A stretch of DNA of 64,000 nt from Candidatus Bathyarchaeota archaeon. GTDB taxonomy: Archaea; Thermoproteota; Bathyarchaeia; TCS64. Below the pieces are notes generated by a model. The model did not search any database. It was not told the origin of the DNA and saw only the letters and a program-made list of their open reading frames with translations. The DNA is taken from the NCBI GenBank assembly GCA_963769425.1, contig CAVYLP010000001.1, positions 192,001 to 256,000 on the forward strand. The letters run 5' to 3'. Positions within the stretch are counted from its first letter, which is position 1; every line of letters starts with the position of its first letter. The translations under genes were made by a program, and so were the position numbers. Shown here piece by piece: positions 20,633-42,989 of the stretch.

Positions 20633-21289
20633 ATGACCGAGACCAAGCAGTACACAGGGCGGCTCGCCCCGGTCAAGAAGTGGCTCGACGGAGTCACCGA
20701 GAAGCACCTAATTAGGGGCGCGGGCATCGTCCTGCTGACGGGTCTGTTGGCTGGTGCCACGGCTTACACAAATGCCTCGAAGATTCAGATCCCCGTCACG
20801 GGAACCGCGGGCGTCGCAGGCATGGTCCAGTCCATAGCCGCAATCGCGGCGGTCATAGTGACCCTACTCGGGTGGGTCATTTCCTCGGTCATCTACCACG
20901 TGGGCGCAAGTGTTCTCGGGGGGAAGGGGAGCCTCAACAGGATGTTCGCCCTCGCGGGGTACGCCTCGATCCCCGCCCTCGCCCAGCAGCTGCTCCGATT
21001 CGTCAACTACGCCATCCTCAACCAGACCGCAATCACGTCAACAGGTGGCATCTTAGGGACGATCCTCAACTACTTCAACTTCTTCTCGATTATCGGGTTG
21101 ATACTCGTAGGCATCGCGGTGATGGTCAACTACGGGCTTTCTGGAAGGAAGGCCGCCTTGGTCGCCCTACTGCCAACGATCATCAGCATCGCCCTCGCCC
21201 TGCTCGCCCGACAGTTATTCGGCGGGTTAACAGCCGCCTCAGCGAATCAGGGCAGCGGCCTCTTCGCCGGTATGAGGCGACTTGGGTAA
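20633..21289 (+). CDS. YIP1 family membrane protein
   Basis: ~5 TM, H..A..LGGKG, GYASIP pattern. Confidence 0.75.
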   Translation: MTETKQYTGRLAPVKKWLDGVTEKHLIRGAGIVLLTGLLAGATAYTNASKIQIPVTGTAGVAGMVQSIAAIAAVIVTLLGWVISSVIYHVGASVLGGKGSLNRMFALAGYASIPALAQQLLRFVNYAILNQTAITSTGGILGTILNYFNFFSIIGLILVGIAVMVNYGLSGRKAALVALLPTIISIALALLARQLFGGLTAASANQGSGLFAGMRRLG

Positions 21290-21370
21290 GCGGGTTTCAA
21301 ACGCATCACGACGAACGACATCTATCTGGACGATACCCATAGTTCAGTGATAGGAAAATTTTCCATTAAA

Positions 21371-21525
21371 ATGGAGGTGCCCAAGTGTTCTCACCTAGGG
21401 GACGAAGGATTCCCAGGAGCCTAAGCCCCCGGGGCCTTACGCAGCCCGTCCCTCTTGGTTCGGCGTCTCGGGGGGGTCTTGAACGCTGCTCCGACCCTTG
21501 AGGCGCTCCCACCTGGGCAATCCAT
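21371..21525 (-). ncRNA. Candidate structured non-coding RNA (~150 nt), family not recognised
   Basis: GC-rich island between AT-rich flanks. Terminal helix UGCCCAGGUG/CACUUGGGCA; inner helices CGCCU/AGGUG, GGGUC/GACCC, GGGACGGG/UUCGUCCC, CCCGGGGGC-UUAG-GCUCCUGGG. G-U pairs favour the minus strand. TTTAAC box upstream, T-run downstream. Confidence 0.6.
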
Positions 21526-21738
21526 ACATTAACCTCAGCGGTTAAACAATCTGCGTTGCATCGTGCATACAACTACGGGAGATTATACCGGAGATCAACC
21601 CCAATTATTGTCTCCTACGACTAAACAATGTCCCATAATATTGACGCGTCGATTAATTGTTGGCGAAGAGCAAACAACAAGTACGAATACATTCCGCTCT
21701 TAACAGTTTTAATGCTGATTAACCTCAGTGGATGGAGG

Positions 21739-22242
21739 TCACGGGGGCGTCCATGAGATGTACCTCGACGTGGTGTACCTCTGCTTCTGAGACACCCCGA
21801 AGCCGCTCCTGATGATCTCCGGGAGCACCTGGTTCGCGAACTTCTCCGTCGGCTGGCCCGGAACTATGCCCTCGCAGTCGGAGTCGAGGTAGATATAGTA
21901 GATCTTGTCCCCGAGCCTGTAGGCGCTGTTGTCGCCGCGGGGGTAGACTGGTTTGTGCTGTATGCGAAAAGGGAAGAGGCGGCAGGCGGTGGGCTTCATG
22001 CCCTGTATAGTGCATATCCACCTGTCCATGAGTGGGCGCTGGAGAACGCAGCGGCGATCGGGGCCGTTCCGGAGGTAGACCTTGCCCGTGCCGTACTCGA
22101 AGACGCCCTGTCCGCAGGCGCTCCCGACCTTCACGAACTCGTCCATGCGTAGGGGGACCCTGTAGCCGACGCAGCAGTTACCACATGCCCTGCACTGCCA
22201 GTTGGCGACCTCACGCCAAGGTATGAGAGTCTTGTCCCCCAT
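21739..22242 (-). CDS. YkgJ family cysteine-cluster protein
   Basis: CRACGNCC, C..., CTIQGMKPTACRLFPF, C.GI. Confidence 0.88.
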   Translation of the reverse strand: MGDKTLIPWREVANWQCRACGNCCVGYRVPLRMDEFVKVGSACGQGVFEYGTGKVYLRNGPDRRCVLQRPLMDRWICTIQGMKPTACRLFPFRIQHKPVYPRGDNSAYRLGDKIYYIYLDSDCEGIVPGQPTEKFANQVLPEIIRSGFGVSQKQRYTTSRYISWTPP

Positions 22243-22397
22243 GTCGGTCTCTAGCCCCTGTATGCTTGAAACCTAAATACTTTGCCGAGACTTACCCCGC
22301 ACGTTAGCGACAAAATCGGTGCTTAGAAGACAGGATCGGGCCATGGAAAATTTTTACATTGTCTGGATCAAATTGGCTCCATGCAGCACTCCCTCAG

Positions 22398-22690
22398 GGT
22401 AGATTAAGGTTCATCGACTTCACACGCGGCGTGATCATGGCGTTGATGGCGTGGGACCACATCGCGGGGTTCTGATACTCACAGCACTATGGGAGTGAGG
22501 GCCTCGGGGGGCTCTTCCCCTACCTGAACGGCGACCTCCTCCCCTTCATAGCTCGTTTCATCACCCTCTACGCCCCCACCTTCTTCTTCCTCTCCGGGAC
22601 CTCCATAGCCATTTCCACGGCCCGGAAGCTGCAGAAAGGTGTGAGCCAGAGGGAGATATCGCTCCACCTCATTAAGCGGGCGGCACGCGC
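22398..22690 (+). pseudogene. Truncated DUF1624 / heparan-alpha-glucosaminide N-acetyltransferase-like membrane protein relic
   Basis: Manual translation GRLRFIDFTRGVIMALMAWDHIAGF*YSQ...ARFITLYAPTFFFLSGTS...SLHLIKR; internal TGA at ~22473, then similarity is lost. Confidence 0.7.
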
Positions 22691-22923
22691 ATCCGACACG
22701 AGGCACAGAGGAAACAACTAGTAACAATGGCTCGAAGCCTCCGAACCAAATAAATAACACTCGCTCACCGAACCAGGGCCGATGCTCTAAAGATAAATAC
22801 GATTTTAAGAAAGCTACTTAGGAAACTCTCAACAACAAGGCTTCCTAAAAATCCCGTTGCATTCTCCTCCACACATTCAGCTATATATAGCGAAGTCGTC
22901 GGGGACGCGTCGCCGGAACCATC

Positions 22924-22978
22924 TGAAACGCGTCGAAAACCGTTGAATATCGATTGAAAACCGTTGCATTCCGTGTGC
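22924..22978. repeat. Degenerate 10-11 bp tandem array (TGAAAACCGT-like)
   Basis: Units tgaaacgcgt, cgaaaaccgt, tgaatatcgat, tgaaaaccgt, tgcattccgtg; GAAAACCGTTG recurs at 22935 and 22956. Confidence 0.55.
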
Positions 22979-23361
22979 CTTCAACATCCATTGAAGGGCG
23001 TGGATCGCGGTTCATTGAACGATGTGAATAGAGGCGGGGTGGGTGGACGCCATTCAATCGAAGGCGTAACCCAGTTTGGATGTGTTCATTCATCGGTGTG
23101 AAGGGTGTCCCGTGGAAACACCTTATTAGTGGTTACCACTTACAGGGAAACATTGCAAGTCGGGTTGACGAGAGGTAAACTCGGGGAAGGCATTCAGTGA
23201 ATCCTCTGAGCCGGTGTTGGGGGTTATGACGATTTAAAACCGGTATTAATCAATAAAGTGACAATGCAGCGCGCTATAATCCGGGCAGGCTGTTGACTGA
23301 GTTCATTCTACCTGCTGTGAAATGAGAGATCCCATTTTCAAAAAAGGATGCTCTAGTACGT

Positions 23362-23529
23362 CTAGTCCTCGCCACGCTTGTGCTTCTTCTCTGCCTCCTC
23401 AAAGTCGTAGAGGTAGGGGTAGATGTCGTTGTGCTGCTTGATGAGTTTGAGTGTGAACCCCGCGAAGACGACTATCATGGCGATGGCCGCCACGTAGATT
23501 ATGATGGTATATACGAGGACTGTGTCCAC
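23362..23529 (-). CDS. Small single-pass membrane protein (55 aa)
   Basis: Not in ORF track. GGTGG SD then GTG: MDTVLVYTIIIYVAAIAMIVVFAGFTLKLIKQHNDIYPYLYDFEEAEKKHKRGED. Confidence 0.75.
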   Translation of the reverse strand: MDTVLVYTIIIYVAAIAMIVVFAGFTLKLIKQHNDIYPYLYDFEEAEKKHKRGED

Positions 23530-23561
23530 TTAATCCACCATCAAGGGCTGTGCGGAGCGAT

Positions 23562-24062
23562 CTATTGAAGCTTCCCCTTGCCCGCGAGGGATAGGGACAT
23601 GACCCAAGCGTCCTCCCCATCGAGGTAGTAGCCATAGTTCCGCTTCGTCTTCGCGAAGCCCAACCCCTCATAGAGCTTGACGGCGGGCTCGTTCCCGACG
23701 CGCACCTCTAGGTAGCACTCCGTCGCTTCGTAGGTCACCGGGCCCCTCTTCATCGCCTCGAGCATTAGCGCCTTCGCCATGCCTCTGCGCCTGTAGGACT
23801 CCCTGACGGCTATGGAGACCACGTGGAGCAGCCGCGCCGGGCTGAGGTTGCGAAGCTTGCTAAAGCCGCGCTCTACCCGGCACATAATGTACCCCTGTAT
23901 CTCACCGTCCGCCTCGGCTACTACGAACGTCTCCGGGAACCTGCTGAACAGCTCCCTGTAGAAGCTGCTGCTGTAGTTCTCGGGGAGGCACTCGAAGTTT
24001 ATGGCCATGACCCTGTTCAGGTCCTCACCCTTGAATGTTCTTAGTGTGAAGCCTTGGCTCAT
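23562..24062 (-). CDS. rimI: Protein N-acetyltransferase (RimI/Ard1 family)
   Basis: LPENY, GYIMCRVE.G, HVVSIAV..YRRRG, YLEVRVGN, YYLDGEDA. Confidence 0.92.
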   Translation of the reverse strand: MSQGFTLRTFKGEDLNRVMAINFECLPENYSSSFYRELFSRFPETFVVAEADGEIQGYIMCRVERGFSKLRNLSPARLLHVVSIAVRESYRRRGMAKALMLEAMKRGPVTYEATECYLEVRVGNEPAVKLYEGLGFAKTKRNYGYYLDGEDAWVMSLSLAGKGKLQ

Positions 24063-42910: not shown

Positions 42911-42989
42911 TGGTGCTCCCGCCGGGATTTGAACCCGGGATCCCTGACTCGAAAGGCCAGTATGCTTGTCCGGTCTACACCACGGGAGC
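42911..42989 (-). tRNA. tRNA-Glu (TTC), CCA encoded
   Basis: GCTCCCG...CTGGC-CTTTCGA-GTCAG...GGTTCAAATCC...CGGGAGCACCA cloverleaf. Confidence 0.96.

Follow-up and report, generated by a model that had tools for sequence, protein, structure and literature searches.

A predicted gene for a structured RNA, about 150 nt long, in a conserved intergenic gap of Bathyarchaeia

Genomic context of the element

We analyzed a 64,000-nt stretch (hereafter the window) of contig CAVYLP010000001.1 from a Candidatus Bathyarchaeota archaeon (GenBank assembly GCA_963769425.1), with a focus on a 450-nt gap that holds an RNA element and is flanked by converging protein genes. We propose that this element is a stand-alone, single-copy gene of Bathyarchaeia whose product, a folded RNA about 150 nt long, acts in trans and most likely serves as the RNA of a particle. 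Taken as a whole, this explanation appears to us the probable one. That the element is an expressed RNA gene, with its transcript and ends deduced from sequence, we regard as highly probable. The features of the gap and its borders are as follows.

20633-21289, plus strand: gene for a Yip1-domain membrane protein, on the downstream side of the RNA element
21368-21519, minus strand: predicted RNA of about 150 nt, with a likely start at 21519/21518 and an end in a T-run
21739-22242, minus strand: gene for a CxxCxxCC cysteine-cluster protein, on the upstream side of the RNA and on the same strand

We infer the ends of the RNA from conservation and promoter geometry. An initial annotation of this DNA had described a G+C-rich island without a credible open reading frame (ORF). 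The composition scan bears out the island, with a G+C content of 0.67 at 21400-21499 and of 0.41-0.45 (21550-21749) and 0.44 (21300-21399) at the flanks. A cis-acting leader or riboswitch was considered and excluded because the next downstream gene runs the opposite way: on the minus strand the element is followed by the T-run and then by the Yip1 gene in opposite orientation.

Conservation across related genomes

A genome-collection scan was performed with an alignment of 42 Yip1 homologues (A1), some of which are named Bathyarchaeota by their sources, and homologues of the RNA were sought in the loci found in this way. The scan returned ten loci. Nine were from Bathyarchaeota/Bathyarchaeia metagenome-assembled genomes (MAGs); the tenth, a weak partial match, came from an unrelated WOR-1 bacterium. 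The homologues and loci bear out Bathyarchaeia as the lineage named in the initial annotation. All ten-sequence comparisons below use the window and the nine Bathyarchaeia loci (L001-L009). The locus is collinear across the nine genomes, with most neighboring proteins 75-98% identical and Yip1 52-87% identical.

The element occupies the same syntenic place in all nine related loci, and nhmmer found the 166-nt element once in each of them (E-values 1e-30 to 6e-46), which settles in the affirmative whether homologues exist in the genomes fetched. A covariance model (R1) built from the core alignment (A5) gave exactly one sense-strand match in the window and in each of the nine loci (171.6-197.8 bits). 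Over 210 kb, R1 found nothing else better than an E-value of about 0.05; the weak matches were the antisense of the same site and two at E-values of 1.5 and 2.4. Comparing the gap with the 64-kb window did not reveal a second copy either, with matches of at most 12 nt only, and neither plasmid nor phage collections contained a match to the element. The initial annotation had named dispersed copies as a sign of a repeat. With one copy per locus, none elsewhere in the 210 kb and the same syntenic place in 9/9 loci, we rejected a miniature inverted-repeat transposable element (MITE) or other dispersed repeat, which would be expected in many copies at unrelated sites, with terminal inverted repeats and target duplications.

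No other stretch of the locus is as conserved in the ten genomes as the core, which has a mean pairwise identity of 91% (minimum 81%) and 86-99% identity to the window. The 220 nt upstream of it have a mean identity of 59% and are 55-82% identical to the window. In six neighboring genes, third codon positions are 40-80% identical to the window and whole-gene DNA is 61-92% identical. By this measure the core is held about as tightly as codon positions 1 and 2 of the best-conserved proteins of the locus, while the spacer drifts at about the silent rate and neighboring silent sites are nearly randomized. The edges of the conserved part are sharp: invariance runs from the T of TGCCC (21519) to GGGCA (21378) and is followed by a semiconserved tail and the T-run. 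An identity of 91% next to silent sites at 40-80% points to selection as strong as that on the best-conserved proteins of the locus, and the RNA therefore very likely does something important.

Coding potential

One long frame crosses the element (68 aa, 21572-21366), with an Arg/Pro/Gly-rich, filler-like translation. In the relatives this frame is broken by an internal stop in L004 and by a frameshift and several stops in L007. No relative of the 68-aa frame was detected in a collection of 5.8 billion proteins; the same search, meant to reveal ORFs miscalled over the RNA in related genomes, yielded no candidates. Variable core columns are distributed over codon positions 1, 2 and 3 as 13, 14 and 10, without an excess at the third position. 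We conclude, as far as these ten sequences allow, that the element is not a protein gene, because the frame is interrupted in L004 and L007 and lacks a third-position excess, and the earlier remark that there is no credible ORF is thereby upheld.

That there is no RNA gene at all, and that the element is instead a small protein gene, a DNA-level site or a MITE-like mobile repeat, is in our view very improbable. Such a reading could draw on the 68-aa frame, which is open in the window, and on the short direct repeats ACCTCCAT and CCRCTGAGGTTAAT, which look like joined element ends (21739-21718 compared with 21541-21528 and 21378-21371). The broken frame and the absence of protein relatives speak against the first version, the single copy per locus and the lack of matches in the plasmid and phage collections against the last, and the strand asymmetry of G-U pairs described below is not expected of a DNA site. 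The direct repeats are not conserved in the nine relatives and are therefore attributed to chance; a circle or insertion junction formed from ACCTCCAT and CCRCTGAGGTTAAT was dropped since neither repeat is kept there. In the window, ACCTCCAT follows the upstream stop codon and is itself followed directly by CCACTGAGGTTAAT, so that on the minus strand the 3' end word of the RNA and the 14-mer before the RNA are repeated.

Transcription signals

Putative signals for transcription lie on both sides of the core. The two transfer RNA (tRNA) genes of the window are listed here for comparison of promoter spacing.

21541-21546, minus strand: TATA-like box TTTAAC, an A/T-only run kept in position in 10/10 sequences
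21368-21377, minus strand: 3' tail CCUCCA and T-run, single-stranded, likely termination site
42914-42989, minus strand: tRNA gene with the TATA box TTATAA
43085-43159, plus strand: tRNA gene with the TATA box TTTATA

All ten sequences have an A/T-only run of 5-8 nt that spans -28/-27 to -23/-21 relative to the T of TGCCC. Its letters drift (TTTAA, TATAA, TATAAT, TATATT, TAAAT, TATATATT and TAAATT) and its position is fixed, which is how a working TATA box would be expected to behave. Conservation sets in about 25 nt downstream of this box. The two tRNA genes diverge from a 95-nt spacer, each with its TATA box about 30 nt before the mature 5' end, and because this spacing is similar, the geometry of the box fits an RNA start at or beside 21519/21518.

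At the other end, six variable bases separate GGGCA from the T-run. The tail reads CCTCC in five sequences, ACTCC in two, and CCTTC, CCTCA and ACTCT in one each. The T-run itself (21371-21368) is TTTT in nine sequences and TTT in L008; oligo-T is an archaeal stop signal. Thus, both the box at 21546-21541 and the T-run after the last helix, on which the initial annotation had relied, recur in 10/10 sequences. A scan for bacterial promoters and terminators, which is not relevant to archaea, found nothing. Just beyond the T-run, at 21352-21363, lies the palindrome GGAAAATTTTCC, at a place where the ten sequences share an A-rich run. This A-run may serve as the T-run of the converging Yip1 transcript, in which case the site may act as a two-way stop.

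The spacer upstream of the RNA

The stretch between the CxxCxxCC gene and the RNA (21526-21738) raises the question of a longer transcript. The core could be the stable 3' domain of such a transcript, either a 3' untranslated region (UTR) of the CxxCxxCC messenger RNA (mRNA) or a precursor of about 370 nt that includes 21526-21738 and is processed. In its favor, the whole gap (alignment A2), from the upstream stop codon to the T-run, aligns to the window in 9/9 loci with 71-84% identity over 362-426 nt, the spacer is nearly constant in length and contains invariant blocks, and the CxxCxxCC gene is adjacent and on the same strand in all nine loci. We nevertheless hold this reading to be improbable: the mean identity of the spacer is no higher than that of silent codon positions, neither of its strands yields a consensus fold (-1.25 and -4.0 kcal/mol), and the position-conserved TATA-like box is suitably spaced from the point where conservation sharply sets in.

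Several features of the spacer were recorded in their own right. Its length is 220-223 nt in 10/10 sequences, with almost no insertions or deletions despite the low mean identity. An invariant block, ATTAAACCTGTTAAG, lies about 30 nt after the CxxCxxCC stop codon. Three RACAAT-type words also occur in the spacer, two of them direct and the third inverted. Immediately before the TATA-like box is a GTTG-N11-CAAC palindrome, the inner positions of which partly covary. Neither a consensus fold nor a consistent ORF was found in the ten sequences. The spacer could serve as an array of operators or give rise to a second, unstructured transcript.

A small spacer protein was considered and rejected: the MSH frame (plus strand, 21628-21756) and the MGH frame (minus strand) are open for about 4-56 codons and carry stops or frame changes in several genomes. 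The second codon of the MSH frame varies only among serine codons in the ten genomes, and an A/T-rich word, TTATTG, lies about 22 nt upstream of its ATG, as in leaderless mRNA. The frame ends after 14-42 codons, depending on the genome, and the conserved block downstream falls in another frame in L007. A micro-peptide of about 14 aa could conceivably be made from it.

Predicted fold of the RNA

On the minus strand, the 166-nt element folds with -76.0 kcal/mol (z = -2.87; 2/200 dinucleotide shuffles as good), compared with -67.7 kcal/mol on the plus strand (z = -1.34; 21/200 shuffles as good). Single folds of all ten homologues gave negative z-scores throughout (-1.74 to -3.35). Folding the core alignment with RNAalifold and reading the sequence itself resulted in the following parts, all on the minus strand.

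21510-21519, minus strand: P1 5' strand UGCCCAGGUG, 10 pairs with 21378-21387, 100% paired in the ten sequences
21378-21387, minus strand: P1 3' strand CACUUGGGCA, pairs with 21510-21519
21507-21509, minus strand: junction strand GGA, precedes the P2 5' strand
21500-21506, minus strand: P2 5' strand GCGCCUC, pairs with 21463-21469
21463-21469, minus strand: P2 3' strand GAGACGC, pairs with 21500-21506
21474-21497, minus strand: P2a hairpin, 5-bp stem GGGUC (21497-21493)/GACCC (21478-21474)
21479-21492, minus strand: P2a loop of 14 nt, GGAGCAGCGUUCAA, invariant
21393-21459, minus strand: P3 arm, an interrupted stem (21446-21459 with 21393-21405) that bears P3a and P3b
21434-21445, minus strand: P3a, 3-bp stem with a variable 6-nt loop
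21412-21433, minus strand: P3b, 9-bp hairpin with an invariant UUAG cap (21421-21424)
21509-21506 (GGAG) and 21391-21388 (AGAA), minus strand: purine strands, as read from the sequence

Eight of the ten P1 pairs are invariant, and the other two vary as G-C/G-U or U-A/U-G. In P2, nine sequences have an internal C.A, which in L007 is replaced by U.G through substitution of both bases. A small internal loop lies between P2 and P2a, where every base of stem and loop is identical in 10/10 sequences and the stem is present in all ten single-sequence folds. P3 consists of eleven pairs (97.3% paired) with one compensatory change from C-G to U-A in L007, and P3b is 97.8% paired, with two pairs showing the same compensatory change (L003 and L006) and two switching between G-C and G-U. 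The strands of the three-way junction are purine-rich (GGA, NGA and RAGAA). The P3a loop reads GCGUAA, GCAAAA, GCGAGA, GUAUAA or GCAUAA. Most single-sequence folds extend P3b by AGG/CCU instead of forming P3a; the changes in L007 fit P3a and break this alternative. The side hairpin P3a and the fine structure of P3 are therefore uncertain in our model.

The closing stem UGCCCAGGUG/CACUUGGGCA, the GGAG/AGAA loop, the GGGUC/GACCC arm and the 9-bp UUAG hairpin had all been recognized in the initial annotation, and all were recovered where it had placed them. Three of its other proposals did not hold. The outer extension of the closing stem by AUGGA/UCCAU has three predicted pairs that are broken in 2, 3 and 2 of the ten sequences; it probably falls outside the RNA, because the stretch that contains its 5' half, from the TATA-like box to the likely start, is not conserved. 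The CGCCU/AGGUG helix is only 86% paired, with a U-A broken in 5/10 and a C-G in 2/10, and CGCCU has a better partner in GAGACG, in P2. The alternative of a long rod that acts as a switch or decoy found no support, as P1 and P2a recur in all ten minimum free energy (MFE) folds and the whole branched layout in nine; only L003 departs, in P2 and P3.

Strand assignment could be examined on A5 by counting 45 pairs in ten sequences (450 cells). Of these, 52 are G-U or U-G and would be A-C on the plus strand, from which we conclude, as had been suggested earlier, that the minus strand is the sense strand. One example is a U/C change in the P1 3' strand opposite G (4/10 G-U, 6/10 G-C), which fits the minus strand only. 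The consensus energy of the core alignment (RNAalifold) also favors this strand, with -64.1 kcal/mol compared with -50.4 kcal/mol on the plus strand. An element in the 3' part of the Yip1 mRNA was dismissed as unlikely, given the poorer fold of the plus strand and the G-U pattern.

Comparison with known RNA families

The window was searched with the 4227 models of Rfam 15, which include 5S ribosomal RNA (rRNA), archaeal signal recognition particle (SRP) RNA, the RNase P types, C/D and H/ACA RNAs, riboswitches and ribozymes. At gathering thresholds, the only matches in the 64 kb were two tRNAs, neither of them at this site, and the nine loci gave none. With permissive filters (E <= 10), no match was obtained on 21200-21750 (551 nt), so that the element has neither a significant nor a marginal Rfam match. 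ARAGORN found no tRNA or tmRNA gene on 21200-21800. A search of titles and abstracts found no publication on a Bathyarchaeia-specific RNA family. Together with the homologues in 9/9 loci, the single copy, the box and T-run and the assignment to the minus strand, these results support the earlier suggestion of an independently transcribed noncoding RNA of a class that is not listed.

Guide RNAs were also considered. Box C/D RNAs carry a C box (RUGAUGA) near the 5' end, a D box (CUGA) near the 3' end and a kink-turn. Reading the alignment by eye, we saw no C/D boxes in the core, and the Rfam C/D models scored nothing; the 4x4 purine loop GGAG/AGAA likewise lacks, by eye, the 3-nt bulge and tandem G.A of a kink-turn. 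In H/ACA RNAs, a hairpin with an internal pocket is directly followed by ACA. Here, the only ACA after the P3 arm (about 21388-21386) sits within the P1 pairing, and Rfam gave no match. On this visual inspection, we dropped the idea that the purine loop or the junction represents a kink-turn, C/D or H/ACA element.

Among known systems, 5S rRNA (RF00001) is nearest in shape. It shares with the element, in its commonly described layout, paired ends, two arms, a three-way junction and high conservation. It is about 120 nt long, compared with about 150 nt here, and the element does not score against the Rfam 5S model even at E <= 10. Additionally, the longer arm probably rebranches here, and the junction strands are purine-rich. 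The shared closing stem, arms and junction might be taken to mean a very divergent 5S rRNA, SRP RNA or RNase P RNA, a reading that we consider quite improbable. None of the corresponding models reaches E = 10 on the 551 nt, none passes its gathering threshold in the window or the nine loci, and the element exceeds 5S rRNA in length by about 30 nt and is half as long as SRP or RNase P RNA. According to PMC4919917, all five RNase P proteins are present in at least one Bathyarchaeota genome, and an ordinary RNase P is therefore to be expected.

Two further comparisons concern the kind of RNA. The Hgc RNAs of Methanocaldococcus are reportedly orphan G+C-rich archaeal RNAs that emerged from composition screens. 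They resemble the element in forming a G+C-rich island in an A/T-rich spacer, with a promoter, an oligo-T stop, a stable fold and a function that is not known. The element differs in that it has no match in Rfam, which is said to include Hgc, and in that its host belongs to the Bathyarchaeia, with a genome G+C content of 57.5%, which is not A/T-rich. With SRP RNA, bacterial Y RNA and 6S RNA the element shares conservation of the whole molecule, a single copy, a presumed action in trans, a closing stem and specialized loops; the likeness is one of logic only, as there is no similarity in sequence or model. No Ro or SRP54 homologue, or other such partner gene, was found next to the element.

Proposed mode of action

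We propose the following course of events. Archaeal RNA polymerase would start about 25 nt downstream of the TATA-like box (21546-21541), at or next to 21519/21518, read the minus strand and stop in the T-run (21371-21368). The transcript would fold into the 10-bp P1, the purine-rich three-way junction, a short P2-P2a arm that ends in the invariant 14-nt loop, and a longer P3 arm that ends in the 9-bp UUAG hairpin and probably bears a small side hairpin. The resulting compact, stable RNA would act in trans with its whole surface being read, most likely as the RNA part of a protein-RNA particle.

Action in trans as a compact RNA is suggested because stems, loops and junction strands are near-constant while silent sites are nearly randomized. 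Conservation of a whole surface is typical of RNAs that are wrapped by proteins or folded into a compact active shape. A protein-bound structural RNA is accordingly our tentative choice for the mode of action, one that we put forward with less than even confidence. If the RNA works in this way, we favor the 14-nt loop and the UUAG loop as its recognition surfaces. Within the 14-nt loop is UUCAA, the same letters as in a tRNA T-loop; the tRNAs of the window carry UUCAAG and UUCAAA in their T-loops.

The RNA could also be a trans-acting regulator that pairs with mRNAs through the 14-nt loop or the CCUCCA tail, with the remainder serving as a scaffold. A free-standing gene with a promoter-like box and a T-run, an accessible invariant loop and an unpaired 3' tail beside a stable stem would all suit such a function; moreover, CCUCCA is similar to the anti-Shine-Dalgarno end of 16S rRNA. 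In base-pairing regulators it is usually a short seed that is conserved, whereas conservation here spans the whole molecule, and the 3' tail is its least conserved part, with five variants in ten sequences. The complement of the loop was matched five times in the 64-kb window at <= 3 mismatches (one match being the loop's own DNA), compared with 5.9 expected. We therefore judge a regulator to be unlikely, and the seed mode seems less likely than a protein-bound RNA.

More far-reaching would be the core of a new housekeeping particle, or a catalytic or ligand-binding RNA, and thus a new essential class of structured RNA, kept as strictly as the best-conserved positions of proteins and occurring across Bathyarchaeia and perhaps beyond. 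We give this rather little credence. If it were true, the 14-nt loop, with its T-loop-like UUCAA, and the UUAG loop would be the working surfaces, with docking on tRNA or the ribosome as one example. In sediments and soils, Bathyarchaeia rank with the most abundant archaea; cultures exist for almost none of them. The stand-alone RNA gene would add a candidate family to the short list of archaeal structured RNAs, and it offers an easily tested target, with strand, ends and covariance model in hand. By new we mean that the element has no detectable relation to catalogued families, and its spread as seen here is limited to ten closely related genomes.

Support for the structure and points against the proposed RNA gene

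In the pair count, 96.7% of the 450 cells were paired, compared with 33-52% when the 3' partners were slid by 1-3 columns. Compensatory changes from C-G to U-A affect 3/45 pairs (one in P3 and two in P3b), and in seven more pairs G-C alternates with G-U or U-A with U-G.

Several points weigh against our proposal. The slid-partner control is biased toward a structure that was derived from the same sequences. As many as 31/45 pairs never vary, and covariation is statistically weak because the RNA hardly varies: the observed values were reached in 43/500 shuffles for compensatory pairs, in 25/500 for the covariation score and in 71/500 for percent paired. The high consensus energy of the core alignment is largely due to sequence identity. 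The ten genomes are close relatives, which limits what their comparison can show, and place the known spread within one clade. The promoter, the start and the end are all read from sequence patterns, and the 220 nt upstream also have conserved blocks and a fixed length, as a longer precursor might. Finally, no particular protein partner is indicated, and the basis of the particle reading is the pattern of conservation. The structure is thus supported by energy, strand asymmetry and a handful of consistent changes, and not by significant covariation.

Sequences flanking the gap

Upstream of the CxxCxxCC gene, 22243-23400 is a variable, low-coding stretch that contains only short ORFs without Pfam matches. 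For its middle part (22690-23349, about 660 nt), a counterpart was found in none of the nine loci. The adjoining part at about 22243-22685 is common to L002, L005, L008 and L009 only, with L001 and L003 matching its first 146 and 46 nt. On the far side, about 23350-23562 is shared by six of the nine loci (L001, L002, L003, L004, L006 and L009) and has no match in L005, L007 and L008. On the other border of the gap, the Yip1 gene (20633-21289) evolves much faster than its surroundings, with 52-87% protein identity in the nine genomes compared with 84-98% for the genes on either side.

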